Source of the DNA: Microcoleus sp. Aus8_D1
GTDB lineage: Bacteria > Cyanobacteriota > Cyanobacteriia > Cyanobacteriales > Microcoleaceae
Length of the DNA stretch: 28,185 nucleotides
Reading direction: 5' to 3'
NCBI RefSeq assembly: GCF_036702645.1
Contig: NZ_JAUBUO010000016.1
Span: forward strand, 1 to 28,185
The notes beneath the pieces are model-generated. The model made no database searches, had not been told where the DNA came from, and saw nothing but the letters and a program-made list of their open reading frames with translations. Below are positions 53-22,453 of the stretch, piece after piece (within the stretch, counting starts at the first letter, position 1; every line of letters starts with the position of its first letter). Both the position numbers and the translations under genes were made by a program.

Positions 53-156
53 CGTCAAGTACCTCATCTTTCTGAGACTCGGCTATACACAGAAGTGATA
101 TAATCAAATCGCCCAATATCTAAATACTCTTCTATAAATTTTAGGTAAGCATTCCA

Positions 157-489
157 ATGGCACAACTAGCCGAGTTTTCCTTAGAAGATGGCACTACATT
201 TTTAGTAGAAATAGAAGAGCCAGAATCCCGAACTATCCAACGAGTCGCACTGCCTTCCGGACAGATGGTTGTCAAAGCTCAACAAAGTTTTGAACAAGCT
301 CTCGATCGAATTAAACCTGTAGCATCTACTATTCTTTCTAAACTCAAGGACTTAAATACTCCTGCTGATGAAGTAGAGGTCAAGTTTGGCATTAAACTGA
401 CGGCCGATGCTGGAGCAGTATTTACATCAATTGGAGGGGAAGTCAATTACGAGATTACCCTGAAATGGAAGCAGAATAAATCAAGTTAA
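157..489 (+). CDS. Small (110 aa) Trypco1-like (trypsin co-occurring domain) protein
   Basis: ORF ends 8 bp before a trypsin-like protease gene. The C-terminal segment DEVEVKFGIKLTADAGAVFTSIGGEVNYEITLKW resembles the conserved core of small trypsin-associated proteins (EVEFGxKxxAEAGAxIAKAGGEANFKVTLxW). Family assignment is from memory, not a search. Confidence 0.6.
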   Translation: MAQLAEFSLEDGTTFLVEIEEPESRTIQRVALPSGQMVVKAQQSFEQALDRIKPVASTILSKLKDLNTPADEVEVKFGIKLTADAGAVFTSIGGEVNYEITLKWKQNKSS

Positions 490-496
490 TCTCATC

Positions 497-1372
497 ATGA
501 ATAACAACTATTTTCAAGCTTTTAAAGGAGCGATCGCCCGCATATATCACGCTAATGGCGCAGTAGTTGGAGCGGGTTTTTTAGTATCCGATCGCTATCT
601 GATTACCTGTGCTCATGTTGTCGCAGCAGCTTTGAGTATTGCTCAGAACACTCAAGAACAGCCAACTGGTACGATCGAATTAGATTTTCCGCTAATTGCA
701 GCAGGGCAAAAAGTAAAGTCCAAGGTTGTATTCTGGCAGCCAGTTAATCCATCGCTCTCCGGAGAAGACATTGCCGGGTTAGAATTAGAGGGTAGTTTGC
801 CTAACATACAACCAGTATACTTGGTTGGTGCTGAAGATTATTGGCAGCATCCGATCAGAATTTTTGGATTTCCACAGGGGCACGATCTGGGAATATGGGC
901 AACTGCCACTCTGCGCGATCGCACTGCAAATAACTGGGTGCAAATAGATGCTGTAGCAGCTCAAAATCGGCCCGTTGAACAAGGGTTTAGCGGTGCGCCT
1001 GTATGGGATGAATCGCTGCAAGGAGTAGTCGGAATGGCGGTAGCGGCAGAAAAGCGACGAACAGATGTGACCGCTGCATTTATGATTCCTACTGCAATTT
1101 TACGAGGTGCATGGTTGGATTTAGAGCGATCGATCGCACACAATCCTTCGTCCATGAGGCAATCTCTTGATAGTTTGCCATCTTTTCGCCAAGTAAAGTT
1201 GAAGGCCTTAAAAAGTAACTACTCTATCTTGTGCGCTAAGTATGAAGCAGCTTACAATCAGCTTGGCTACACCTTAAATGACACTGATATTGTTAGCCTT
1301 AAACAGAAAATCAAAGGTCTCGAAACAGAAATCATGACATTAGAACGAGAAATTGATAGTTTATCTAACTGA
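497..1372 (+). CDS. Trypsin-like (S1/chymotrypsin fold) serine peptidase with C-terminal coiled-coil / EAD-like module
   Basis: LITCAHVV (catalytic His) and GFSGAPVW (catalytic Ser, GxSGxP) motifs. The C-terminal 60 aa are heptad-like (KQKIKGLETEIMTLEREIDSL) and homologous to the N-terminus of the next gene. Confidence 0.85.
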   Translation: MNNNYFQAFKGAIARIYHANGAVVGAGFLVSDRYLITCAHVVAAALSIAQNTQEQPTGTIELDFPLIAAGQKVKSKVVFWQPVNPSLSGEDIAGLELEGSLPNIQPVYLVGAEDYWQHPIRIFGFPQGHDLGIWATATLRDRTANNWVQIDAVAAQNRPVEQGFSGAPVWDESLQGVVGMAVAAEKRRTDVTAAFMIPTAILRGAWLDLERSIAHNPSSMRQSLDSLPSFRQVKLKALKSNYSILCAKYEAAYNQLGYTLNDTDIVSLKQKIKGLETEIMTLEREIDSLSN

Positions 1373-1382
1373 ATAGTTATCT

Positions 1383-2447
1383 ATGAATAATAAAAACAAC
1401 AATGAAAAGTTAATTGTTCGCAAAAAACAATATTTAGAGCTTCTATACAAACAATTTGATTCAGCTTATACACAATTGGAAACAACAGTAAATGAGTTTG
1501 ATAAACCTTCTATTCAAGCGAAAATCAAAGTTTTAGAGAACCAGATAGAACAAGTACACAAAGAAATTGACAACTTAGAATTACGCTCATCTCAAACAGG
1601 CAATGATTCGCATCCGCAATCTGGGAACTTCATCGAAAAATTGGGTAATGGCGTCCAGCTAGAAATGCTACATATTCCTCAAGGCAGCTTCTTAATGGGT
1701 TCGCCAGAAAATGAACTTGAGAGAAGCAACGATGAAGGCCCTCCGCACCCAGTGACTGTCCCAGCTTTCTTTATGGGCAAATATCCTGTCACCCAAGCTC
1801 AATGGAAAATTGTAGCAAATCTGCCTCAAGTTAACCGCGAACTCAATCCAGATCCTTCATGTTTCAAAGGTGTGAATCGCCCTGTTGAAACGGTTTCTTG
1901 GTATGATGCCGTCGAATTTTGTGCTCGCCTCTCCCTAGAAACTGGCAAGACTTACCGCTTACCCAGTGAAGCAGAATGGGAATACGCCTGTCGCGCTGGG
2001 ACAAACACGCCGTTTCACTTTGGGGAAACAATTACGACAGATTTAGCCAATTATAATGGTAATTATACTTATGCTGCTGGGTCTAAAGGAATTTACCGCG
2101 AACAAACAATGCCTGTGGGTAGTTTTGGGGTAGCCAATGCCTTTGGACTCTACGATATGCACGGAAACGTCTGGGAGTGGTGTGCAGACCCTTGGCATGA
2201 TAGTTATGACGGTGCGCCTGGTGATGGTAGGGTTTGGGATGAGACTTGTAATGATAATCGTTATCAAAACAGCATTGATTTATTAGTCCATACTGAGGCA
2301 AAAGATAACCGAACTCGGCTGCTGCGCGGTGGTTCGTGGCTCGTCTATCCGAGGAACTGCCGTTCGGCGATTCGCCTCAACCATGCGCCGGACATCGTCA
2401 ACTTCCTCAACGGTTTTCGGGTTGTGTGTGTCGCTGCGTGGACTTAA
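1383..2447 (+). CDS. FGE-sulfatase (SUMF1/formylglycine-generating-enzyme fold, FGS) domain protein with N-terminal coiled-coil module
   Basis: Motifs [58 protein letters not shown] and RLLRGGSW are diagnostic of the FGE-sulfatase fold. The N-terminal 60 aa are coiled-coil. Confidence 0.9.
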
Positions 2448-2504
2448 TAGCTCTTTACACTTTTACCCTCTTGCTCTTTACACTTCTTAATTTTTCACTT
2501 GTTG

Positions 2505-2532
2505 GTCGCCCCTGGCGACTCGATTTTTTTTT
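2505..2532 (+). terminator. Rho-independent terminator after the FGS gene
   Basis: GTCGCC-cctg-GGCGAC stem-loop followed by tcgaTTTTTTTTT. Confidence 0.6.
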
Positions 2533-2615
2533 GCCTTTGTCAACCATCTATGCCTAACAGAATTTTGGGATATTTTTTATATTTGCCAGGTCAAATATTG
2601 AGATAATTTCAGAAT

Positions 2616-2808
2616 TTGTAGGGGCAGGTTCACCAACAATTCATGGCACAAACAAATAATATTGTCAACCCGCCCCACCCAACAGACAATCAAAATGTAC
2701 CAGAAATTTATTGGTAAGATGTTAATCTGAATTTATCGTGTGGTGGGGGCGGGTTTTTGTAAATTATTTGTGGGTTTTAGAGATGGTTGGTGAACCCGCC
2801 CCTACAGG
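2616..2808. repeat. REP/BIME-like nested palindromic element, copy 1 (about 193 bp)
   Basis: Outer arms TGTAGGGGCAGGTTCACC and GGTGAACCCGCCCCTACAGG; inner arms AACCCGCCCCACCC and GGTGGGGGCGGGTT. GTAG head. Preceded by a 55-bp spacer that is itself repeated. Confidence 0.85.
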
Positions 2809-2863
2809 ATTATCGGATATTTTTTTGTATTTGCCAGGTCAAATATTGAGATAATTTCAGAAT

Positions 2864-3056
2864 TTGTAGGGGCGGGTTCACCAACAATTCATGGCAAAAA
2901 TGAATGATGTTGTAAACCCGCCCCACCCAACAGACAATCAAAATGTACCAAAAATTTATTGGGTAAGATGTTGATGTGAATTTATCGTGTGGTGGGGGCG
3001 GGTTTGTGAAATTGTTGGTCTGTTTTGTAGATGGTTGGTGAACCCACCCCTACAGG
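2864..3056. repeat. REP/BIME-like nested palindromic element, copy 2 (tandem with copy 1, includes the 55-bp spacer)
   Basis: Near-identical to copy 1; the preceding spacer gtatttgccaggtcaaatattgagataatttcagaattt (inside the 55-bp inter-copy spacer 2809-2863) is duplicated at 2563-2615. Confidence 0.85.
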
Positions 3057-3091: not shown

Positions 3092-3652
3092 ATGAAATAC
3101 AATCCTCATATCCATCATCGCCGTTCTATTCGTCTACCAGGATACGACTATAGCCAATCAGGTGCATATTTTGTAACAATTTGTATTTGGCAACGTGAAT
3201 GTTTATTAAGTGAGATTCAAGAGGGGAATGTTTTATTAAGCCGCTACGGTGAAGTCGTTAACTTTAATTGGTTTAATCTCACAAGGGTGTATCCTCATAT
3301 TGAATTAGATTCCTTTGTGATTATGCCAAATCATATTCATGGAATTATTCTCATAAAACAACGGAATAAACGTCAGGGTTTATCGGAAATTGTGAGAGGT
3401 TTAAAAACCTTTTCTTCCCGGCGGATCAATCAAATACGTTCTGTTTCACAAATACCTGTATGGCAAAGGGGTTATTATGAACATATTATTCGCAATGAGG
3501 CAACATTCTCGAAAATTCAGGAATATATTATAAATAATCCGTTTAAGTGGGAAATGGATGAAATGCACCCATCACAAAAGTTTTACTATTCTAATAAAAT
3601 TGATATTAAATTAGATAGTGAAAATGTATTGCCGATGAATTTATCATTATAG
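3092..3652 (+). CDS. REP-associated tyrosine transposase (RAYT, TnpA_REP; IS200/IS605-like Y1 HUH enzyme)
   Basis: N-terminus HRRSIRLPGYDYSQSGAYFVTICI, HUH motif NHIHGIIL and catalytic-Tyr motif WQRGYYEHIIRNE. Flanked on both sides by REP-like palindromes. Confidence 0.85.
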   Translation: MKYNPHIHHRRSIRLPGYDYSQSGAYFVTICIWQRECLLSEIQEGNVLLSRYGEVVNFNWFNLTRVYPHIELDSFVIMPNHIHGIILIKQRNKRQGLSEIVRGLKTFSSRRINQIRSVSQIPVWQRGYYEHIIRNEATFSKIQEYIINNPFKWEMDEMHPSQKFYYSNKIDIKLDSENVLPMNLSL

Positions 3653-3662
3653 TAACCCAAAT

Positions 3663-3853
3663 CTGTAGGGGCGGGTTCACCAATAACTCATGGCAAAAAT
3701 GAATGATATTGTAAACCCGCCCCACCCAACGAACAATTAAAATGTACGATAAATTTATTGGTGATATGTTGATGTGAATTTATCGTGGGGTGGGGGCGGG
3801 TTTGTGAGATTGTTGGTCTGTTTTGTAGATGGTTGGTGAACCCGCCCCTACAG
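3663..3853. repeat. REP/BIME-like nested palindromic element, copy 3
   Basis: Same outer and inner arms as copies 1 and 2. Confidence 0.85.
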
Positions 3854-3896
3854 TATTTGGGATGTTTTTTTGTTTAAAATATAGATGGAATTTTAA

Positions 3897-4090
3897 GGTG
3901 GGTGGGGGCGGGTTCACCCACCATCTATCGGGAAAATGAATGATATTGTAAACCCGCCCCCACCCAACGAACAATTAAAATGTACGATTGATTTATTGGT
4001 AAGATGTTGATGTGAATTTATCGTGGGGTGGGGGCGGGTTTGTGAGATTGTTTGTGGGTTTCAGAGATGTCGGCGAACCCGCCCCTACAG
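3897..4090. repeat. REP/BIME-like nested palindromic element, copy 4 (variant left arm GGTGGGTGGGGGCGGGTTCACCC)
   Basis: Shares the inner arms and the right outer arm CGAACCCGCCCCTACAGG. Confidence 0.8.
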
Positions 4091-4148
4091 GATTTTGGGA
4101 TGTTTGTTTGGAAATTCATTGGTTAAATATTTATGTAATTTAATTGTC

Positions 4149-4339
4149 TGTAGGGGCGGGTTCACCAACAATTTATGGCACAAACAAATAATATTGTAAA
4201 CCCGCCCCCACCCAACAGACAATTAAAATGTACGATGAATTTATTGGTAAGATGTTGATGTAAATTTATCGTGTGGTGGGGGCGGGTTTGTGAGATTGTT
4301 TGTGGGTTTCAGAGATGTCGGCGAACCCGCCCCTACAGG
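4149..4339. repeat. REP/BIME-like nested palindromic element, copy 5
   Basis: CTGTAGGGGCGGGTTCACCAAC ... GGCGAACCCGCCCCTACAGG. Confidence 0.85.
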
Positions 4340-4392
4340 ATTTGGGGATGTTTTTTTTATTTTATTAGTTCAATAATATCAATAATCTGCGG

Positions 4393-4625: not shown

Positions 4626-5786
4626 TTATTGTACATCCAACACTTCCACAATCTTAACCTTCAGCACGCCCCGACTCAACCTCACCGTCAACTCCTCTCC
4701 CAATTCCAAACCGTCAGTTTTGCGGACAATTGTACCGTCAGCTTGGATTACGGCTGCATAACCCCTTTGCAAAACCGCAGCCGGATTTAGGGCGGCTAAC
4801 TTTTCTTGCAATACCTCCAGTTTACCAGTTGCCTGCCGCAAAGTTCGCGATGTCGTCGGCAATCTTTTTAAGCGACTTTTTAACAGTTCCAAATGCTCTG
4901 ATTCTGTCTGAAATCTTGCCCGCACAACACTTGCTAAATTGAGCGTTCTCTGCTTGTGTTCCCAGTAAATATCTGCTAAAATTGGTACGGCTTGGGTAGC
5001 GGCAGCCGTCGGAGTGTGCGCTCGTTTATCGGCTACTAAATCGGCTAGAGATTCGTCTCTTTCGTGTCCGATTCCTGTGATAATTGGTATGGCACAATTG
5101 GCGATCGCCCTGACGACTCTTTCATCGTTAAAACAAGCCAAATCCTCCGCAGAACCGCCGCCACGCCCTAAAATTATCACATCAGCCCTACCGTCCAATT
5201 CTACACGGGCGATCGCCCTGACGATCGCAGCCGCAGCCAAATCTCCCTGCACCAAAGTCGGCGACAGCAACACCCGCAAACCCGGATATCTCTGCGCTAA
5301 CGTGCGCTGAATATCCCCCCAAGCAGCGCCAGTATCCGATGTCACCACCGCCACAATCTGGGGGTGTGCGGGAATCGGGCGCTTTCTGGCAGGATCGAAG
5401 AAACCCTCGGCTTCCAAGCGCGATCGCAATTGCTGCAACCGCAAAGCCTCCAATCCTTCCCCAGCCGGTAGCGATTGCACCACAGTCAACTGGTACTCGC
5501 CGCGATTTTTGTACATCCGGATGCTTCCCAACACCAGCAATTGTTCGCCTTTTACGGGCATTTGCGTCAATTTCTGTCGCTGAGAATTCCACACCACGCA
5601 GCGAATTGCAGCGCTTTTGTCTGGATCGCAGAGAGTGAAAAAGCAGCCGCTGGGATGTTGCGAAACGTTGGACACCTCGCCGATCAGCCAAACCGATCGC
5701 AAATTGCGATCGCCCTCCAGCAACTCTTGCAGGTATGATGTTAGTCCGCCCACCGATAACGTTGTGTCAGGAAAAATTGAATTCAT
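4626..5786 (-). CDS. xseA: Exodeoxyribonuclease VII large subunit
   Basis: N-terminal [17 protein letters not shown]-fold region and central catalytic domain typical of XseA; operonic with xseB. Confidence 0.85.
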
Positions 5787-5795
5787 TAAACAATT

Positions 5796-5828
5796 GTAGA
5801 TTTTAGATTTTAGATTTGAGATTTAGGC
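5796..5828. repeat. Heptanucleotide tandem repeat (TAGATTT/GAGATTT)n
   Basis: Direct reading: tagattttagattttagatttgagattt. Confidence 0.8.
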
Positions 5829-5913
5829 TACTATATCTAAGGTATTTATTTGTAGGTCTATCCTCTGCGAGGGCTTCTCTACCGGCGAAGGTAAATTAAC
5901 AGCAAACAAACTA

Positions 5914-6651
5914 ATGATATCAGATGTCATGACTTCGATGAATGTGCTGCGCCAAGAGGCTGCGGCGATCGGCATTACTGATGCCGAAGCCAGAAAGTAT
6001 GGCGATCTCAGACATAAAAGAACTTGGTCTTTGGCGATCGAACATCACCTCTCGATGCAAGATTTTGCCGATGGCGCAGCATCCGATTCTGATAGCGCAC
6101 TCCACCAGTCTCGGACTGAAGAGTCTCAAGACTGCGGCATTCAGCTAACGGCGAATCTGGGCGAATCTGGAGTCAAAAGAGAGAACAAAACAGCATCTGA
6201 GGCGGCGCCGCCACAGTCAGGAATTGCGAGCCTCTCCGAGGGCTTCGCTAACGGGCGATCGCACAATAATTCCGATTACCGCAGCCACCAAAACCGAGGT
6301 TTTAAACAAGTAGTTCAGAACCACATTAAAGCCTTAACAATTGCCTCAGCCTCCCGTACAATTCAGATAAATTCACAATTCAACAATTGGGTTTGCCCGG
6401 AGTGCTACCCAGAGGGCGAATCGGGTTGTCACCTGTGTGCCGGAGAAAGGTATGTAAGCGACATTGCAGCTATTGGGTGGACGCTAGCTTATATGGAAAT
6501 GTTGGGCTGTTCGGCTCGCGAAATCGAACCGCTGAGGAAATTTTCGCCTGCCTCCGAAACTCTGGAATTGAATTTAAAAGTTTGTGTTGCTATCAAAGAA
6601 AGTACCGAAGTTTTAGCGCGGACTGAAAAATGGGTAATCGGTAATCGGTAA
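5914..6651 (+). CDS. Hypothetical protein (245 aa) with a Cys cluster CPECYPEGESGCHLC
   Basis: Long ORF in an otherwise gene-free interval, divergent from xseA. No recognisable family. The C-terminus is encoded by the (GGTAATC)3 repeat. Confidence 0.5.
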   Translation: MISDVMTSMNVLRQEAAAIGITDAEARKYGDLRHKRTWSLAIEHHLSMQDFADGAASDSDSALHQSRTEESQDCGIQLTANLGESGVKRENKTASEAAPPQSGIASLSEGFANGRSHNNSDYRSHQNRGFKQVVQNHIKALTIASASRTIQINSQFNNWVCPECYPEGESGCHLCAGERYVSDIAAIGWTLAYMEMLGCSAREIEPLRKFSPASETLELNLKVCVAIKESTEVLARTEKWVIGNR

Positions 6652-10837: not shown

Positions 10838-11704
10838 TTGCGTGTGCTGCAACTCCTTGACAACTGAGATTAAGCGCTTGAGATGAGGTTTAACAACTTC
10901 TTGTTGCTCGTGTTCCAAACGGTGGATTTGAGCTTGGACTACAGACAAATCCGGAGTCGATTGCTGCGCGGGAGCTTGCAGTTGGCTTTGCAGATTGGCC
11001 ATGACTTTCTGGATTTCAAAAAATCGAGTATTTACTACTTCCCAGTCGTCTCGGGTAATCGCAGTTTCTGCTAAGCCTTTCGTCGCGCTTTGCAGTTTTT
11101 CTATCGCCTGTTCCACAGCTTCGAGATTTGCCGGTTGGCCAACCGATAAATCTCGAAGCTGTGCGCTCACCTGCTGGCGAACATCGAGCACAGCAGACGC
11201 CACAATTTCTTGCAAAGAAGCTACCGACTCTCCCAAACTCAGCAATTGCCGCTCGATGTCGAGGGACTCCTCAAAACCTTCAGCCCTAGGAAGTGCAGCC
11301 ATTTGCTGGCGCAGCGCTGCAATATCAGCAGACAACTGCTTGCGCAATTTAACAATTACCGTCACCGCCGTTTTTTCGACTTTATTTACAGACTTTTGCA
11401 CTTGGGCTAGTTCCGAATTTTGATGAACCCGCACTTGCTGCTCGAACCGATATCGGTTAGCCACATTTAGCGACAAAGCCAAAGTTAGCGGAGCCACTCC
11501 GTAAAAAGCTTGACCCGACACAGCCACCGCCAGGGAACCCACACCAGAGGCCGCCAGAGAGGCGTACTCTGCCACTTCCAGCCAGTGTCTTTGAGGAAAA
11601 CTTTGCCTCAAGTGGTTTCTAGCAGAGGGGTTTGGCTTCCGCACGGCTCTTTGGGTCATAATATTTTCTCGTTGTTGGTAAGGTGGCGCGACTGGGTGGA
11701 GCAT
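10829..11704 (-). CDS. Hypothetical coiled-coil protein with an N-terminal hydrophobic segment
   Basis: Long Q/L/A/E-rich heptad-like sequence; WLEVAEYASLAASGVGSLAVAVSGQAFYGVAPLTLALSL is a TM-like region. Real start probably the internal Met (MTQRAV). Confidence 0.55.
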   Translation of the reverse strand: MLHPVAPPYQQRENIMTQRAVRKPNPSARNHLRQSFPQRHWLEVAEYASLAASGVGSLAVAVSGQAFYGVAPLTLALSLNVANRYRFEQQVRVHQNSELAQVQKSVNKVEKTAVTVIVKLRKQLSADIAALRQQMAALPRAEGFEESLDIERQLLSLGESVASLQEIVASAVLDVRQQVSAQLRDLSVGQPANLEAVEQAIEKLQSATKGLAETAITRDDWEVVNTRFFEIQKVMANLQSQLQAPAQQSTPDLSVVQAQIHRLEHEQQEVVKPHLKRLISVVKELQHTQDS

Positions 11705-11931: not shown

Positions 11932-11966
11932 GATTTGAGATTTGAGATTTGAGATTTGAGATTTAA
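11932..11966. repeat. Heptamer repeat (GATTTGA)4
   Basis: gatttgagatttgagatttgagatttgagattt. Confidence 0.8.
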
Positions 11967-12088
11967 AATGCCACCTAGTGAGGGCGATCGGAGTTTTGAG
12001 CCACTCGGTAGTTGCGTTTTGGTTCGTGCATTGGTATAATTTACTTTTTCTAAATTTCCCGGATTTAATTTACAGCAAGACTTAACAA

Positions 12089-12223
12089 ATGAAATCAGAA
12101 AAACCCGAAAATGGCGCTCGGCTCAAGTCTATTTTCAGTATCACAATCTTTATTATTCTCGTCCTAGCAGTAGGCTTTTTAAGCGTGAATTTTATTTCAG
12201 CTCTGTATGCCAAATTTTCTTAA
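12089..12223 (+). CDS. Candidate small (44 aa) single-pass membrane protein
   Basis: MKSEKPENGARLKSIFSITIFIILVLAVGFLSVNFISALYAKFS: polar N-terminus followed by a 23-residue hydrophobic helix. Below the ORF-track threshold; no clear RBS. Confidence 0.25.
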   Translation: MKSEKPENGARLKSIFSITIFIILVLAVGFLSVNFISALYAKFS

Positions 12224-12341
12224 AATTAGTCCTGGACGCATGGAATTCATAAACTGGTTTTTTTACAAAAATACTTCGTCGCAGCCAGCAGAATCGGTAA
12301 AAAACCCGGTTTCTTTGGTATTTAGGCGTCCAGGACTAATT
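12224..12341. repeat. 16-bp perfect inverted-repeat pair (AATTAGTCCTGGACGC / GCGTCCAGGACTAATT) separated by about 86 bp
   Basis: Arms at 12224-12239 and 12326-12341. The right arm overlaps the stop codon of the STAND gene. Confidence 0.7.
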
Positions 12342-13730
12342 TGGTGATAACCCTTTGATATATTGCTTCAGTACAGGTGGCAAAGTGTAAAGGCTTTCCT
12401 GTTTTTCGATCGAGCAGCGTCGCGAGAGAGATTGCAATGCGTTTAGCAAATTTGATGATGATATTTGTCCGTTTTGTAGCAATTTGGCGACGTTGACTGG
12501 CTGGTTTTCTGTCGCCAACAATGACATGACTTGTTTTTCGAGTTCGGAAGTGCGATCGTACTGCTCATGTAAAACATCTTTTAAATCTTCGGGTAACAAT
12601 ATGGTATCATCTATTAATAACTCATTCGCGCCGATGCCCAACTCTTGAATCAGAGTCGCCACGCTTTTTAACCATAACGGGTTGCCTTGGTAGCGGTGAA
12701 TGAGTGCTTCGCAGTTATCGATTTCTGCTAATCCTTTATCTCTGAGGATTTCCCGTGCGGCCGCAGTGTCTAAACCAGTGAGTTGTAAAGTCCGAATGGG
12801 AGTATTTTCGCTGGTGAGTTGAGGAACTTCTTTCGGCGGTTCCCAACCGATTAGCAGAAAGCAACTTTGATGGGATAATGTCTCTATTTGTTTGAATAAG
12901 GAGCGATATTCTTCGTATTCGGGTTTATACTTTCCTGCCAATTCGCCGCTACAGAAAAGGTTGTGAACGTCATCTAAGACTATTAAACAGCGATGGTTTT
13001 GTAAATATTTAATCAGCGGTAAGCGTTTCTGGTTGTTTGAGGATGAATCTTGTTTTTCTGACTGGGAAAAAAGCTGTATTAGGTTAGATTTAAATTTATC
13101 GATGGTGGGGAATTCGTCTAGGGTGCACCAAACTGCGTATTCAAACTCGTCTTTGATTTGTTTTACGAGTTGTACTGCTAGGGATGTTTTGCCGATGCCG
13201 AGTCGGCCGGTGAGGGTGATAAGGCGGCAGTTTTGTTGTAGAATCCAGGTTGTGAGGGTTTGGAGTTGAGGAGTGCGATCGAAGAAGTCGCCCAACTCCG
13301 GCATTTCGCTTAAATCTTGATGTAAAGTTTTAGTTTGTTTTGGGTTAGATGTTTCGTCATTATCTGGATGTGACGTTGATATATCTGGGGGGTGTCTTCC
13401 TTCTCCACAGGTATTAAAATTACCACTGATGTGTTGTTCTATGACGTTTTGTGTAAAGCTTGAAACATTAGAGACTTGAAACCTTTGAATTGCCGAGCGA
13501 AAATTCTTTTTATTGACATTTTCCCCCAACTCCTCTGAAAGTAATTGCCATAATTCCGAAGCCGCATTCCTAACACGACTTTCAGAACAGTCAAAGTCTT
13601 TGGCTACGTGCTTGTATGTCTCGTGTTGTACAGTTCCTTTCAGTACCGCCTCTTGTAAATCATCAAGGTGTTGACCCGTTTTCTCGAAGACTATGCGATC
13701 GGCGAAGTTTAACATTTCTTTGAGATTCAT
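12336..13730 (-). CDS. Short STAND (NB-ARC-like) NTPase with the cyanobacterial N-terminal HTH-like domain and no C-terminal repeat array
   Basis: Walker A LTGRLGIGKTSLAVQLV; Walker B-like CLIVLDDVHN. The N-terminus (LQEAVLKG...YKHVAKDF..SESRVRNAASELWQLLSEELGENVNKKNFRSAIQRF) matches the conserved N-domain of cyanobacterial NB-ARC/WD40 proteins. Confidence 0.85.
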   Translation of the reverse strand: MNLKEMLNFADRIVFEKTGQHLDDLQEAVLKGTVQHETYKHVAKDFDCSESRVRNAASELWQLLSEELGENVNKKNFRSAIQRFQVSNVSSFTQNVIEQHISGNFNTCGEGRHPPDISTSHPDNDETSNPKQTKTLHQDLSEMPELGDFFDRTPQLQTLTTWILQQNCRLITLTGRLGIGKTSLAVQLVKQIKDEFEYAVWCTLDEFPTIDKFKSNLIQLFSQSEKQDSSSNNQKRLPLIKYLQNHRCLIVLDDVHNLFCSGELAGKYKPEYEEYRSLFKQIETLSHQSCFLLIGWEPPKEVPQLTSENTPIRTLQLTGLDTAAAREILRDKGLAEIDNCEALIHRYQGNPLWLKSVATLIQELGIGANELLIDDTILLPEDLKDVLHEQYDRTSELEKQVMSLLATENQPVNVAKLLQNGQISSSNLLNALQSLSRRCSIEKQESLYTLPPVLKQYIKGLSPN

Positions 13731-13996
13731 CGGATCAAGAGGATGGAAAATTTTGTGTATTATAGCACAGGTAGAGACATTTTAGTATATTTTTAGATAT
13801 TTTAGTACATAACTAGATTTCAAGAGATTGAAGGTAGGAGAAGGTTGTCGGCAATATAGGACATTTTAGGGCTGGACAAACCTTTAATTTCTAAGGAATG
13901 ATGGGAGAATCCTCAATCGATCTCTGGTTATTGACTAAACCTACTGATGTCTGACGACAAGTAAGATCCGCTCTCTAGTATAAATGGAGGTTAACT

Positions 13997-14188
13997 ATGT
14001 CCAGTACCCATAACAACCAAGTGCCGATTTCTACTGTTGGTGATGGTTTTTGGTGGAACTACGATTTGTTTGATAAGCAGTCTCTATCTCCTTCGCTGAG
14101 TTCATCAAATCAGTGTTCATCAAAGCAGAGTTCATTCAGCTTATCTCCTTCACCTCGTCGCAGTGTGGGCGATACTTCTTCTAAGTAA
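13997..14188 (+). CDS. Candidate RiPP precursor peptide (63 aa) with a Ser-rich, one-Cys C-terminal core
   Basis: GGAGG RBS 6 nt upstream of ATG. Aromatic leader-like N-half (GDGFWWNYDLFDKQ) and core SLSPSLSSSNQCSSKQSSFSLSPSPRRSVGDTSSK. 82 bp upstream of ycaO on the same strand. Confidence 0.5.
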   Translation: MSSTHNNQVPISTVGDGFWWNYDLFDKQSLSPSLSSSNQCSSKQSSFSLSPSPRRSVGDTSSK

Positions 14189-14217
14189 GTTTCTAAATAT
14201 GAATGAATAATTAGCTA

Positions 14218-14251
14218 AGCATCTTGGCAGTTCTTAGAGACACAAGATGCT
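14218..14251 (+). promoter_or_regulatory. Intergenic stem-loop (9-bp stem AGCATCTTG/CAAGATGCT, 16-nt loop) between the precursor gene and ycaO; attenuator-like
   Basis: Direct reading; followed by a weak T-tract (tttct). Confidence 0.45.
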
Positions 14252-14269
14252 TTCTATCGGTACGGAAAC

Positions 14270-15586
14270 ATGAATATAGACTTAAACTGGCTTCCTCATC
14301 AAGCTCCTACAATCGACTTTAAGGCAACTCTGCATCCATCAAAAGAAATTGCATCACGTTGGTTTAACTTTCCACCTTACCATGACGAGCCGAAACTTTG
14401 GCATCTCTCTGCTCAAGTCAAACCCAGTATAGACATTAAAGATGAAAACTTACAGGAGGTCGCTGGAGGTTCGTCACTGGACTTTGATAGAGCTCTCGCA
14501 AAACTGGCGGGGGAAACCGTTGAGCGTTATGCGATCTCTAAGAATGTCAATCTGAACTTGAATGATTTACAATCATGGCAGGAATTGGTACAGCAAAATT
14601 TGTGTGCGCTAGATCCGTTCCAACTTGTGATTGGTGATGAACATCGACATAAATCGCGTCGTAACGATAAAATTTCATGGATTCAAGGATTTGATTTAAA
14701 CTTACAAGTTCCTGCACTTATTCCTGCACAGCTAGTCTTTGTTCCGCATATTTTTAGAGATAATGAAGCTGTTTGGAGATCCGCTGTATCAACAGGTGCG
14801 GCAGCACACTCTACACTTGAGGGAGCTTTATATGCTGGTCTTTGTGAAGTCGTAGAGAGAGACGCTTTTCAAATTGCTTGGCTTAGACAGTTAAGATTAA
14901 CTAGGATAAATATAACTACAGGTGATACTTACTTCTACAATTCTATCAATAAACTAATTGATGCTGGTAAAAGATATCATCTTCACTGTGAGCTATATCA
15001 GCTTCCTTGTTCTATTCCCTTATCTGTTTGCATGGCAGTTATTTGGGATAATACAGGTATTGGACCTCGGTGTTCTCTGGGTGCAAAATGTTCTCAATCA
15101 AGCTTAACAGCCTGTGTCGGAGCACTTGAGGAAGCTTACCAAATGCGTTCTTGGTTGCGATATACACTCAACAAGTCGGGAGCATTTTCAAAGAATAAGC
15201 CACTTGATACATTGCTCGATAGAGCGAGACATTGGTTAACACATGAAGCTTCAGAAGTTCTTAAAAGTTGGACTCAACAATTCAACAGTTCTATTTCTTT
15301 ATCTGAAAGACCCTCTGAACTTTCTCTTGGTGAATTAGTTGAGTCAGTTAAACAAGATGGAGGTACTGCATATTTCGTTGACTTAACAGCGAAATTACCT
15401 GAATGTCTGCATCAATTGGGTTGGCATATTACAAAGGTAATCATTCCAGAGTACCAACCGCTAAACTTAACGGAGTCAATGGAAGACTTCGCCTTGCTAA
15501 GAATTGATAATGCTTCTCAGCGTTTGAATGCTGAAGCTCTTATTCCAGCGGGAGAGAAATTTAGATATCCTCATCCTTTTTTGTGA
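14270..15586 (+). CDS. YcaO-domain protein (standalone, 438 aa)
   Basis: AGETVERYAIS (ExxER ATP-binding motif) and STGAAAHSTLEGALYAGLCEVVERDAF (YcaO signature). Confidence 0.9.
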   Translation: MNIDLNWLPHQAPTIDFKATLHPSKEIASRWFNFPPYHDEPKLWHLSAQVKPSIDIKDENLQEVAGGSSLDFDRALAKLAGETVERYAISKNVNLNLNDLQSWQELVQQNLCALDPFQLVIGDEHRHKSRRNDKISWIQGFDLNLQVPALIPAQLVFVPHIFRDNEAVWRSAVSTGAAAHSTLEGALYAGLCEVVERDAFQIAWLRQLRLTRINITTGDTYFYNSINKLIDAGKRYHLHCELYQLPCSIPLSVCMAVIWDNTGIGPRCSLGAKCSQSSLTACVGALEEAYQMRSWLRYTLNKSGAFSKNKPLDTLLDRARHWLTHEASEVLKSWTQQFNSSISLSERPSELSLGELVESVKQDGGTAYFVDLTAKLPECLHQLGWHITKVIIPEYQPLNLTESMEDFALLRIDNASQRLNAEALIPAGEKFRYPHPFL

Positions 15587-15595
15587 GCAATCAAT

Positions 15596-16372
15596 ATGAA
15601 TATTACAGATCGACAAAGCAAAGACAATGATCCATTGGGGCAGGGAATTCAACTAGCTCAGGCATTTGAAGAAGCTACTTGGATTCACGATGCTTCTTCT
15701 CTCCAAGCAAGTTATATTCCCCATTCCTGGACATCGATAAATAGGAAGGAATATCGCCGTTTACCAAGAGTTGATTTGAGCGGACTACGTTCTCCAAGTC
15801 AAAATAGCGAATTAAGCAAGGTATTTGAACATCGGTCATCCAAGCGACAATTTTTACCGGAACCTATTGCGTTAGAAACGCTGAGTACGATGCTAGCAAC
15901 GGTTGCCAGCACTCGAAATGAAGAACCTCCAAGCCGAGTTTATCCTTCTGCTGGTCTAAGGTGGCCAATTGAGTGGTATCTTGCCGCAATCAATGTAGCT
16001 TCACTGGAAGCTGGAGTTTATCATTATGAATCATTTGATCATCAACTGGAAACACTAAAAATAGGCAATCCTTGGAACGAGCTTGCGGAAGCGCTTTCAA
16101 TGCAAACCATTGATCGTCCATCAGCTTTACTAATCTTAACTTCTGTATTTCATAGAAGTTGGATTAAGTATGGCATTCGTGGAAGTCGATATGCTTATCT
16201 AGAAGCTGGTGCAGCAGCCATGTCCTTAAATATTGTTGCAGTAGAGGCTAACATTGGTGTAGTTTGGCTAGGTGGCTTTGTTGACTCCTCTATTTCAAAG
16301 ATTCTTGATATTAATTGGAAAATGGAGTTAGAAACTCCGGTTCTATGTCTCGCGCTTGGACATCCTATTTAG
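15596..16372 (+). CDS. SagB-type dehydrogenase (nitroreductase-fold, TOMM azoline oxidase-like)
   Basis: SSKRQFL, YPSAGLRWPIEWYL (PSAGGLYP-like) and RYAYLEAGAAAMSLNIVAVEANIGVVWLGGF motifs. Starts 9 bp after ycaO. Confidence 0.85.
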   Translation: MNITDRQSKDNDPLGQGIQLAQAFEEATWIHDASSLQASYIPHSWTSINRKEYRRLPRVDLSGLRSPSQNSELSKVFEHRSSKRQFLPEPIALETLSTMLATVASTRNEEPPSRVYPSAGLRWPIEWYLAAINVASLEAGVYHYESFDHQLETLKIGNPWNELAEALSMQTIDRPSALLILTSVFHRSWIKYGIRGSRYAYLEAGAAAMSLNIVAVEANIGVVWLGGFVDSSISKILDINWKMELETPVLCLALGHPI

Positions 16373-16985: not shown

Positions 16986-17465
16986 TCAAAATTCCTCTTC
17001 TATAATCTTAAAAGTTCCCATACCCAGTTCCAGAGTAGGTGATGTTAAATTTTGTAGCCATTCCTGCCGAGTCACGCCACTACAATCTATATTATTAAAC
17101 ACAATTTCCTGTTCGTCGATTGTAATTGATATCCCTTGATCGTAGCCATTAGTAGCAATTTGCTGCTGTCGTCGTAAATCATAAATCACTGACCAAGGTA
17201 GGTCTTGCCTTTCTAAATCCAGTTTAATCTGCTTACCATGTAGGTTTCTGATGGTCAAGAACTCTTTGATAGCCTGACTGCATTCAACACATTGAAAGAC
17301 TCCATAGCGACTGGCAATTTTAGCGATATCTTCTCTAATTTCATCTAAACTACTGGGATCTAAACTCAAAGTGTAAAGTTTACCTCCTATATTTATGGAC
17401 AAGTATATCTCAAAATTATTGCCATTGAGTGCTCGACCGATCGCATAGGGTGCGCGCTCTTGCAA
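16986..17465 (-). CDS. Hypothetical protein (159 aa, TTG start); possible toxin-type C-terminal cassette
   Basis: ORF-track ORF. The reading frame stays open upstream through the repeat R, encoding RAIALATIIVLFGICCEGISRSLGKAL before the annotated start. Confidence 0.5.
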   Translation of the reverse strand: MQERAPYAIGRALNGNNFEIYLSINIGGKLYTLSLDPSSLDEIREDIAKIASRYGVFQCVECSQAIKEFLTIRNLHGKQIKLDLERQDLPWSVIYDLRRQQQIATNGYDQGISITIDEQEIVFNNIDCSGVTRQEWLQNLTSPTLELGMGTFKIIEEEF

Positions 17466-20627: not shown

Positions 20628-21836
20628 TCAAACAAATTTGTGCGTAAATTCACTGGTAAAATCCACTCTCCCTTTCCGCAACATTGCAGGATCTAATCTT
20701 TCAATGGTGTTACAAGTTAGTAAAACTACGAGTTTCTGCTGAAATTGAATGCCTTGTTCGTCCATGACGCTTTGATACAAAGTTCCATCCAGCAAACTCA
20801 AAATATGTTCAGTTTTGTTACTACGTTGAGCCGCTGCGGTCGATCGATCTTGAGCCAAATTATCAGCCTCGTTAATAATGATGCAAATCCGCTCCAAATA
20901 ACTCGGCGGCACAAAATTTTCCACAGCATCATGATCCAAGATAAAAATCACATAACCCAGCGGCACTAAAATCTCCTTTGCTACCGCTTGAGTCCAAGCA
21001 GTTTTACCAGTCCCCGGTTCACCGCTAACCAAAACAGCCAACTGATTTTGATCCAGAATTGCCTGCTGAACAGTATCAGTAAAACTTTGAACTTCCGCAG
21101 AAAAAGTCCGAATTGGGAACTGACTGTGAACCTGTCCGACGCGGCTTTTGTACCCGCTGAGAATCACCGCTAAATTGTAAGTAGCCTTGCTAACCAACGG
21201 CGCAATATCTTGGCAAATCAGAGTGTAGCAGCGTCTTCCCCTGTCGTAGCTGTCAATTTGCAGCCAACAGCCGCATCGCGCCCAATAAGCATAAACAGTA
21301 CCCAAAACCTCCAAACGTTCCCAGCTAACAAATCGTTCCGGCGGATAAGAAAAATGCCGTTCCATAAAAAACTGGGTAATCGCATCCGGTTTTCCCAGCA
21401 AATCCAGAACTTTGAAAACAGTAATTTCTTGGAGTTTGTTGAGAACGTAATCAATGGGAATGCTAGCGCGGCTGACCAATTGCACCACGGGCGTTTCCGT
21501 GACTAAAACATCTTTGTAACGGTAATCCGGGTAAACAGGCTGCGGAGTAATGTAATCCCAAAACTCGTCTATTTCGTAGCGAGTATTTTCCGAGAATACA
21601 TTTAAGATATTTGCCCACCAGGTATATTGATGTCGTCCCATGGCATCGGCAATGTCGCTGGCTGCATCTAAACTTTTTTGAGCTAGTTCTCTGGGGTCGC
21701 TAGACGCTAAGTGCAGCAGGTATTCCCAATCAAATTGACGGTATAGAGGTCGCCAGCCTGAGCCGAGCAGCCCTCGATTTTGAGGATTGTTTTGATTAAA
21801 ATTGTTGTCGCGATCGCCCATGTTGTCCGCACTCAT
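20628..21836 (-). CDS. AAA+ ATPase with an uncharacterised ~250-aa N-terminal region
   Basis: Walker A GEPGTGKTAWTQAVAKE, Walker B IIINEAD, sensor-2 LRKGRVD in the C-terminal half; N-terminal half matches no family I recognise. Confidence 0.8.
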   Translation of the reverse strand: MSADNMGDRDNNFNQNNPQNRGLLGSGWRPLYRQFDWEYLLHLASSDPRELAQKSLDAASDIADAMGRHQYTWWANILNVFSENTRYEIDEFWDYITPQPVYPDYRYKDVLVTETPVVQLVSRASIPIDYVLNKLQEITVFKVLDLLGKPDAITQFFMERHFSYPPERFVSWERLEVLGTVYAYWARCGCWLQIDSYDRGRRCYTLICQDIAPLVSKATYNLAVILSGYKSRVGQVHSQFPIRTFSAEVQSFTDTVQQAILDQNQLAVLVSGEPGTGKTAWTQAVAKEILVPLGYVIFILDHDAVENFVPPSYLERICIIINEADNLAQDRSTAAAQRSNKTEHILSLLDGTLYQSVMDEQGIQFQQKLVVLLTCNTIERLDPAMLRKGRVDFTSEFTHKFV

Positions 21837-21907
21837 TTTCGGTAACTCCTAGTTACTCTTATTTTCAAAGATTGGCCGCAGATTTGCTACAACTAAACTG
21901 GATTTTT

Positions 21908-22453
21908 TCAACAGAGTTTGAGATTATTTGGCGGCACCATATCTACCAACCAAACTCTGTTATCCGAGCAGTAAAATGTATGGCCGTCCTGTTGCATTGC
22001 TGCGGCATCTACAGCCAAGACTGCCGGGATGCCGTGTCTGGCACCTACTTTACGCGCTGTCTGAATGTCCGCCGACAAATGAACGTGATGCCGCGACATT
22101 TTCCTAATTCCTTGACTCAGAATAGACTCGACGGCAGTCCTACCTGTTCCGTGATATAAAATATCTGGGGGAACAGCAGGTTCTAACTGCAAGTCAACCT
22201 CTACACTGTGTCCTTGGTTGGCACGAATGAGAGTGCCCGTTTCGTCGAAGGAAAAGCGCTGTTTGTCGTTTTGCGCGACTACTTGCTTGAGTTCTGCAAG
22301 CTGAAGGGGGAAGTTATTTTTTTGGCAGGCATCGAGGAGTTCGCTAACAGGAACCCAGCCTCCCGGCGCGAGTTGAATGCCGATGCGCGAGGGCGCGTGG
22401 CGCAGGTGTTTGCTGAGATATCTGCTGATTTTTCTTAATCGGGTATCATTCAT
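21908..22453 (-). CDS. kptA: RNA 2'-phosphotransferase Tpt1/KptA family protein
   Basis: LSKHLRHAP...GGWVPVSELL; YHGTGRTAVESILSQGIRKMSRHHVHLS (HGT...RxHVHLS) diagnostic of Tpt1/KptA. Confidence 0.9.
   Translation of the reverse strand: MNDTRLRKISRYLSKHLRHAPSRIGIQLAPGGWVPVSELLDACQKNNFPLQLAELKQVVAQNDKQRFSFDETGTLIRANQGHSVEVDLQLEPAVPPDILYHGTGRTAVESILSQGIRKMSRHHVHLSADIQTARKVGARHGIPAVLAVDAAAMQQDGHTFYCSDNRVWLVDMVPPNNLKLC

Follow-up and report, generated by a model that had tools for sequence, protein, structure and literature searches.

Close to its start, the contig NZ_JAUBUO010000016.1 of Microcoleus sp. Aus8_D1 (assembly GCF_036702645.1), analysed here over a stretch of 28,185 nucleotides that is referred to as the window, carries a compact cassette of three open reading frames (ORFs) on the forward strand, which lie within positions 157–2447 and encode proteins of 110, 291 and 354 residues. 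The first is a Trypco1 protein, the second a trypsin-like serine protease with a C-terminal EAD9 domain, and the third a fusion of another EAD9 to a formylglycine-generating enzyme (FGE)-sulfatase domain, abbreviated FGS, which ends in a variable region (VR) of the type produced by diversity-generating retroelements (DGRs). The cassette consists of the following features, with related loci from other genomes and metagenomes denoted by L numbers.

93–156, forward strand: conserved leader 5′ of the Trypco1 gene and left edge of the cassette; homology with L004, L167, L169/L170 and L002 starts at 93–114
157–489, forward strand: Trypco1/Pepco protein of 110 aa, a predicted protease-activated pore-forming effector (Pfam PF19493, NCBIfam)
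497–1372, forward strand: trypsin-like serine protease (residues ~1–210) with a C-terminal EAD9 (residues 229–289, nt 1181–1363)
1383–2447, forward strand: EAD9-FGS fusion protein of 354 aa, with EAD9 at residues 15–65, a short linker and an FGE-sulfatase/C-type-lectin fold at residues 94–348
1604–1607, forward strand: deletion junction between iSTAND-gene-derived and FGS-gene-derived sequence, placed by DNA colinearity with L170 and by alignments spanning the junction
2337–2420, forward strand: DGR-type VR, C-terminal in the FGS domain, residues ~319–346
2504–2530, forward strand: intrinsic-terminator-like hairpin (2504–2520) followed by a T-run, right edge of the cassette

The genes are tightly packed, with 7 nt between the Trypco1 and protease ORFs and 10 nt between the protease and FGS ORFs. 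An earlier note on this DNA had described the same three genes (157–489, 497–1372 and 1383–2447) with the same second gap, a terminator 3′ of the FGS gene and a heptamer repeat at the start of the window, all of which are present, whereas the first gap had been given as 8 bp and is actually 7 nt. At its right edge the cassette is still conserved beyond the last gene, as positions 2448–2532 match 11101–11182 of L002, directly 3′ of the FGS gene of that locus. A consensus scan of the leader at 93–156 found no sigma-70-like promoter. Positions 1–92 have no match to L004, L167, L169/L170 or L002; they include the heptamer GCCCTAT, a perfect tandem repeat of 7.6 copies at 1–53, which lies outside of the region conserved among the relatives. 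Records 100% identical to the protease and the FGS protein are found on four and three contigs of Microcoleus assemblies, respectively, and the arrangement of the trio is thus not an assembly artefact.

The domain content of the three proteins is well defined by profile searches, and the Trypco1, Trypsin_2 and FGE-sulfatase matches anticipated in the earlier note were all obtained. First, Trypco1 (PF19493) matches the 110-residue protein with an E-value of 1.8e-28 (99.5 bits, cut-off 24.6) over residues 7–106, corresponding to positions 1–98 of the 98-position model, and the NCBIfam CU044_2847 family is likewise matched (4.7e-23, 81.7 bits, cut-off 23). The identity suggested previously therefore holds, although the similarity is not confined to a C-terminal core as had been supposed and covers the whole protein. 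The motif Y98-E99-I100-T101-L102-K103-W104 near the C-terminus shows almost no variation among 72 homologues, with position 100 occupied by Ile in 85% and by Val in 15%. Ile100 is the sole conserved isoleucine near the C-terminus, and the motif is followed by a hydrophilic tail of 6–11 residues across the homologues and of about 10 residues in the window. Polar and hydrophobic residues alternate along the β-strands, as read from the sequence and as seen also in a low-confidence structure model.

Next, the 291-residue protein is indeed a trypsin-fold protease as proposed earlier, with Trypsin_2 (PF13365) matching residues 25–180 (E-value 4.3e-13, 50.7 bits, cut-off 27.6) and the catalytic triad His40, Asp91 and Ser165 being invariant among 15 homologues. 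A feature absent from the earlier note is the pair of EAD9 domains (PF19962, cut-off 25), which are located at residues 229–289 of the protease (53.8 bits, E-value 1.6e-14) and at residues 15–65 of the FGS protein (28.5 bits). The two copies, at the C-terminus of one protein and at the N-terminus of the product of the following gene, are 40% identical. For the copy in the FGS protein, the structure model shows a hairpin of two helices, residues 2–34 and 38–72, with a predicted local distance difference test (pLDDT) score above 90. According to Pfam, iSTAND, VMAP and NTPase domains are absent from both EAD9 proteins of the window.

Finally, the FGE-sulfatase assignment of the third protein stands with a Pfam E-value of 6.7e-54 over residues 94–348. 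The best solved relative of the domain is PvdO (5hha), and in the structure model the pLDDT falls below 50 from residue 204 onwards. The catalytic CxxxxC segment of FGE (Cys336/Cys341 in the human enzyme) is not kept in the FGS protein, the alignment with SUMF1 being of low confidence at this place, and in that low-confidence part the CxxxxC segment of human SUMF1 coincides with the FGS variable region. In PADLOC, none of the anti-phage profiles match Trypco1 or FGS, and the protease is matched only by generic ones, for example RT-Protease_XI and LmuA.

To place the trio among its relatives, a genome scan with the protease alignment was carried out, which yielded 79 loci whose domains were mapped by custom profiles, with key proteins checked with Pfam; the neighbourhood counts refer to 81 related protease genes in 80 fetched loci, the window being counted separately. 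A Trypco1 gene lies directly 5′ of 77 of these 81 protease genes, as it does in the window, and such an arrangement is far beyond chance. On the 3′ side of the protease gene several architectures are found. An EAD9-iSTAND protein, MoxR, vWA and an FGS protein follow in L001, L002, L003, L009, L010, L016, L046 and others; EAD9-VMAP, MoxR and vWA-FGS follow in L007, L012, L014 and others; and many Nostoc loci have an EAD9 protein of ~552 aa with a weak, STAND-like ATPase_2 match. In further architectures the protease is fused straight to VMAP, TIR-AAA_35 or nSTAND1-WD40. All of the mapped architectures but one include an NTPase or an NTPase-associated core, and the sole core-less architecture, with EAD9 fused straight to FGS, is shared among the mapped loci by the window and L004 of Microcoleus sp. 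herbarium19 (GCA_036700105.1) alone. In the cassette and adjoining it no iSTAND or VMAP, MoxR or vWA was detected by Pfam among the large ORFs of the window. The closest relatives of the protease (75–79% identity) all belong to full systems, and where iSTAND or VMAP, MoxR and vWA are present they are located between the protease and FGS genes, 3′ of the former, in 24 of 24 related loci. A complete locus of the ancestral type is L002, where Trypco1, the protease with EAD9, EAD9-iSTAND, MoxR, vWA, FGS, bAvd, a reverse transcriptase (RT) and a template repeat (TR) are all found. In L171, the MoxR/vWA/FGS region that follows EAD9-iSTAND (11936–15782) is broken into short genes of 60, 238, 45, 302, 101, 249 and 229 aa, which reflects decay of a full system or else frameshifts introduced by faulty assembly.

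A comparison with the complete loci at the DNA level accounts for the missing core. Positions 98–1603 of the window correspond to 283–1797 of L170 at 85% DNA identity and positions 1608–1972 to 5728–6092 of the same locus at 83%, with 3930 nt, or exactly 1310 codons, missing in frame in between. Likewise, positions 114–1583 correspond to 4806–6282 and positions 1617–2532 to 10246–11182 of L002, both at 81% DNA identity. Lost with this block are the remainder of the iSTAND gene, MoxR and vWA, as well as the first ~355 residues of the FGS protein, and the encoded protein reflects the same junction: residues 1–66 correspond to the N-terminal end of EAD9-iSTAND proteins (54% to L002), and residues ~72–354 to the C-terminal portion of the full-system FGS proteins (73% to L002 and 78% to L170). 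Since the DNA is colinear with both L170 and L002, the third gene is an in-frame fusion of the EAD9 of iSTAND to the variable FGS domain by a deletion of ~3.9 kb. The locus as a whole is then a derivative of a MoxR-vWA ternary system and not a member of one.

The link to NTPase-centred ternary systems drawn in the earlier note is upheld by the relatives and by the colinearity. The same note had raised the possibility that the trio is a fragment of a nucleoside triphosphate (NTP)-dependent system, with an NTPase that may lie 5′ of the window start and with FGS as an effector-like protein, and here the evidence points elsewhere. The family does derive from NTPase-centred systems; however, the core is situated 3′ of the protease gene in every one of the 24 related loci and precisely that block is deleted here, which means that it was lost internally and not at the edge of the window. 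In addition, the homology to the relatives ends at window positions 93–114, and housekeeping genes are found upstream of the trio in L004/L081, which together make an NTPase partner immediately upstream highly improbable. An NB-ARC/NACHT-type STAND NTPase of 464 aa is encoded in the window at 12336–13730 on the reverse strand, and was considered and rejected as the missing NTPase, being ~10 kb away on the opposite strand, devoid of EAD9 and without a counterpart among the annotated genes of L004/L081. As a separate observation, the N-terminal ~80 residues of this protein are 35% identical (E-value 1e-13) to an HTH_VMAP-M9-like module at residues 270–351 of the L002 FGS protein; in the full systems the module stands just before the FGS domain, and it is the one deleted from the FGS gene of the window.

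The trio is not restricted to the window. Conservation of the neighbourhood across genomes, raised in the earlier note as a check, is indeed observed, with the same three genes found in L004/L081 and in the metagenome contigs L082–L088, where Uma2 is located upstream and XisI/XisH downstream with no NTPase nearby; purM and panC-cmk are also present upstream in L004/L081. The stretch shared between the window and L004 is the cassette only (window 93–2449), and the flanks are unrelated. Over the ~16% DNA divergence between the two, the ratio of non-synonymous to synonymous substitution rates (dN/dS, Nei-Gojobori method) is 0.32 for Trypco1, 0.25 for the protease domain, 0.30 for the EAD9 of the protease, 0.20 for the FGS scaffold and 0.62 for the EAD9 of the FGS protein, which evolves faster than these other parts. 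All three genes are under purifying selection.

The window and L004 nevertheless do not appear to share a common fusion event. In neighbour-joining trees the window groups with the iSTAND-type L169 (bootstrap 90% for protein and 100% for DNA), whereas L004, L082 and L085 form a separate clade (96–100%). The breakpoints differ as well: in the window, the iSTAND-gene sequence extends to approximately residue 73 and the FGS-protein sequence resumes from residue ~355, while in L004 the corresponding breakpoints are near residue 63 and residue ~171, and neither fusion is derivable from the other by further deletion. As the trees split the window from the L004 clade, with different breakpoints on either side and no relationship between the flanks, the most parsimonious interpretation is that the EAD9-FGS fusion probably arose twice by two independent in-frame deletions. 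A single origin is not favoured, with both the trees and the differing breakpoints counting against it, and one fusion that was later trimmed independently is the less probable alternative.

The C-terminal end of the FGS protein shows a markedly different pattern of conservation from the rest, which likewise had not been recognized in the earlier note. The EAD9-FGS orthologues are near-invariant up to the sequence RLLRGGSW, beyond which interspersed variation is found between the constant residues CRSA..R..AP(D)..GFRVVCVAA. In L002, where the TR is available, it is AAC-rich, and A positions are where the VR departs from it. A comparison of the window with L004 shows differences in 13 of the 28 VR codons, all of them of the form NNC/NNT, with a dN/dS of 3.5 and a dS of 0.12 in the VR against 0.48 in the scaffold. 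When four EAD9-FGS VRs are compared, with the TR of L002 taken as a proxy for the template, 24 of the 28 template-A positions are variable as opposed to 12 of the 97 non-A positions (Fisher p = 5e-13). The region also aligns with the VR of TvpA (PDB 2y3c). From these patterns, the last ~28 codons of FGS are a DGR-type VR with a presumed ligand-binding role. The divergence of the VR and the backbone is 26.7% and 8.4%, respectively, between L004 and L082, and 5.3% and 4.2% between L004 and L085, so that the VR outpaces the backbone only in the deeper comparison. In the L004 clade at least, diversification of the VR therefore went on once the fusion had formed.

Several of the full-system loci hold two to three VR/TR-like copies together with extra short FGS genes. 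Such copies are located at 12879–13058, 14526–14586 and 16539–16679 in L003 and at 15997–16147, 17011–17176 and 18791–18908 in L007, which suggests that multi-target DGRs are attached to the ternary systems of these two loci.

The individual components of the trio have well-described counterparts. Trypco1/2 and the EADs, the latter as homotypic coupling adaptors, were defined in a computational proposal by Kaur et al. 2020 (PMC7159879), where FGS is also described as a variable domain that recurs often in the ternary systems of cyanobacteria. Pepco, which comprises Trypco1/2, has been shown experimentally to be a protease-activated pore that is cut after a conserved Ile by its cognate protease, and Pepco-associated proteases may carry an FGE sensor fused to them even where there is no ternary core (10.1101/2025.11.14.688446). 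The family is further characterized by a β-barrel of 9–10 subunits that becomes toxic once cleaved. The CLec/FGE domain has been argued to be a sensor by Doré et al. 2024 (PMC10907252). The role of effector that the earlier note had suggested for FGS consequently does not hold, as its C-terminus is a DGR-type variable region and recent work treats such domains as sensors and shows Trypco1/Pepco to be the protease-activated, pore-forming effector.

Together these features allow a working model in which the locus, with its three genes derived from an iSTAND-MoxR-vWA ternary system of the DGR-diversified type, operates as a sensor, a protease and a pore, for which we consider the chances to be about even. 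In the model, the FGS domain would use its DGR-shaped variable surface to bind a ligand that comes from an invader, and the EAD9 at its N-terminus would pair with the C-terminal EAD9 of the protease. Ligand-driven clustering would then switch on the protease by proximity, without the involvement of an NTPase, and the protease would clip the short C-terminal tail from Trypco1/Pepco, probably after Ile100. The clipped Trypco1 would form a β-barrel pore in the membrane and the infected cell of the filament would die, as in abortive infection. A stronger version of the model, in which the iSTAND-MoxR-vWA core is dispensable and the EAD9-coupled trio represents a complete, NTP-independent suicide immunity system reached at least two times in Microcoleus via in-frame deletions of ~3.9 kb, is put forward more tentatively, at somewhat less than an even chance.

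Several observations weigh against the sensor-protease-pore model and its stronger version. First, in the published EAD scheme one copy is always located on a core component, namely VMAP, iSTAND, Ubl or GAP1 (PMC7159879), and the trio departs from this canonical arrangement, the partner in the relatives being EAD9-iSTAND, EAD9-VMAP or an EAD9-STAND-like protein. Because neither copy of the window sits on a core component, the EAD9 pair may still need a core that is encoded elsewhere. Next, the retroelement itself is missing: no TR-like copy (blastn of the VR) and no RVT_1 or bAvd gene (Pfam, large ORFs) were found in the 28-kb window, blastn of the VR likewise revealed no TR-like copy in L004, and TRs were found only in other relatives. 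In metagenomes, the exact 23-mer inferred for the cognate TR had 0 matches, and a degenerate 26-mer recovered 76 TR-like sites, none of which fits the VR of the window; the best complete candidates have at least 29 non-A mismatches, and two that end at contig edges have 19 and 22. Copies with an identical backbone also share identical VRs, and the diversification thus appears episodic or past and not demonstrably ongoing. Finally, the faster evolution of the FGS-borne EAD9 has to be taken into account, the monomer model of Trypco1, with a helix at residues 36–65 and a long β-hairpin at 72–83/92–103, is of low confidence (pLDDT 49), and the cyanobacterial Trypco1, EAD9 and the trio are known from sequence alone.

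Some of these points could equally be taken to mean that the trio is the decaying remnant of a broken ternary system, in which the genes are non-functional or only the Trypco1-protease pair still matters. The absence of the NTPase core, bAvd, RT and TR altogether, the lack of VR variation among copies with identical backbones and the relaxed constraint on the EAD9 of the FGS protein (dN/dS 0.62) would all agree with decay. On the other hand, the three ORFs are intact with dN/dS values of 0.20–0.32 maintained across ~16% DNA divergence, the deletion is exactly in frame, the architecture has been kept in several diverged lineages after apparently arising twice, and VR codons have changed in the manner of a DGR among lineages that already carried the fusion, all of which renders decay an improbable explanation.

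Downstream of the cassette, a 248-bp tandem repeat with the palindrome GGGGCGGGTT...AACCCGCCCC forms two arrays at 2557–3056 and 3662–4362 (2.0 and 2.9 copies), which flank an IS200-like Y1 transposase gene at 3092–3652 (Pfam Y1_Tnp, E-value 8.7e-10). Copies of the repeat are also found at 11584–11900 of L002, between bAvd and the DGR reverse transcriptase. Because the repeat occupies the same relative position 3′ of the FGS gene in the window and in L002, it may have been involved in the loss of the DGR genes at the window.

A further possibility is that the trio acts as a satellite module, which docks onto a full MoxR-vWA system with EAD9-iSTAND or EAD9-VMAP at another place in the same genome and adds a second sensor specificity to it. 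The published EAD framework permits such docking, filamentous cyanobacteria commonly hold several systems of this kind (PMC7159879), and, counting also against the autonomy of the trio, the trio and a full iSTAND locus are present in the same metagenome samples (L082 and L167 in 3300081961, L083 and L168 in 3300081957). The co-occurring loci are nevertheless on separate contigs with different flanks and may stem from different genomes. Furthermore, the trio retains a Trypco1-protease pair of its own, which would be redundant if it served a full system that already has one; the FGS-borne EAD9 takes the exact place of the iSTAND-borne one, beside the original protease partner; and no core is found within 7 kb upstream and 10 kb downstream in L004/L081. 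On balance, we regard a satellite role as rather unlikely, with the sensor-protease-pore model being the preferred reading.

The trio can be compared to several known systems. The closest are the iSTAND-MoxR-vWA systems (PMC7159879; here L002, L001, L003 and L165–L171), where Trypco1, the protease with EAD9, EAD9 and FGS are orthologous at 76–85% DNA identity to L002 and L170, and the gene order, orientation, VR type and intergenic sequence after FGS are the same. In contrast to these systems, the window is devoid of the iSTAND domain, the MoxR AAA+ ATPase, the vWA protein, the HTH_VMAP-M9-like part of FGS, bAvd, RT and TR, and its EAD9 is fused straight to FGS with no adaptor on a core component. 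The Pepco-protease modules (Evans et al. 2025, 10.1101/2025.11.14.688446) similarly have the Trypco1/Pepco gene directly 5′ of a trypsin-like protease gene, a conserved Ile near the C-terminus, which is Ile97 in SsPepco and to which Ile100 of the window may correspond, and an FGE-type domain as the likely sensor. The tested example is SsPepco with the trypsin-domain Avs4 (10.1101/2025.11.14.688446). The window differs in that sensor and protease are separate polypeptides, which have EAD9 in common instead of being fused to one another, in having no STAND ATPase, and in the tail after the Ile, which is ~10 residues long in comparison to 20 in SsPepco.

Resemblance also extends to the DGR-diversified CLec/FGE antigen-sensor loci (Doré et al. 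2024, PMC10907252) and to Treponema denticola TvpA, which share the C-terminal VR, the FGE-type CLec fold and the AAC-to-NNC mode of variation; in the sensor loci, trypsin, Trypco1 and EAD domains are associated as well (PMC10907252). Unlike those loci, the window is devoid of RT, Avd and TR, and the target protein has no STAND, vWA or N-terminal module besides EAD9. A more distant parallel, by analogy only, is the animal CARD-CARD interaction of Apaf-1 and caspase-9 (from PMC7159879), where a short helical homotypic adaptor is present on both the sensor and the protease, and the protease activates a death effector. There is no relationship in sequence or fold between CARD and EAD9, the latter being modelled as a two-helix hairpin. 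While Trypco1, trypsin, EAD9, FGS and DGR have all been catalogued already, an EAD9 placed straight on FGS, where both the NTPase core and a local DGR are absent, is new.

The signal flow in the ternary systems is debated, in particular the role of FGS as effector or as sensor and the contribution of the MoxR-vWA-iSTAND core, and the locus represents a natural deletion experiment in this respect: the core is lost, the sensor-like domain carries the protease-recruiting adaptor and selection keeps the three genes, apparently in two lineages. If the trio is autonomous, it would support the order of events from FGS sensor to protease to Pepco pore and would imply that EAD9 pairing suffices to couple the three, and the 2.3-kb three-gene system would allow direct tests of the EAD adaptor and of a retargetable DGR-type sensor. 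If the trio is instead core-dependent, it would be a clear case of trans-acting EAD satellites.

Elsewhere in the window, a 245-aa ORF at 5914–6651, between xseA and gmk, has no Pfam match at an E-value of ≤0.001. On the reverse strand, within 14270–16372 and 16986–17465, a YcaO cyclodehydratase gene stands beside a nitroreductase-family gene, a pairing known from azoline/azole peptide maturation systems, and a protein with a papain-fold toxin domain (Tox-PL-2, E-value 1.8e-27) is encoded near the two. Finally, the reverse strand at 20628–22453 carries the gene of a 402-aa AAA ATPase, in which the ATPase domain is C-terminal and preceded by ~245 residues that match no assigned domain, directly 3′ of the gene for the RNA 2′-phosphotransferase Tpt1/KptA, which is an unusual pairing.

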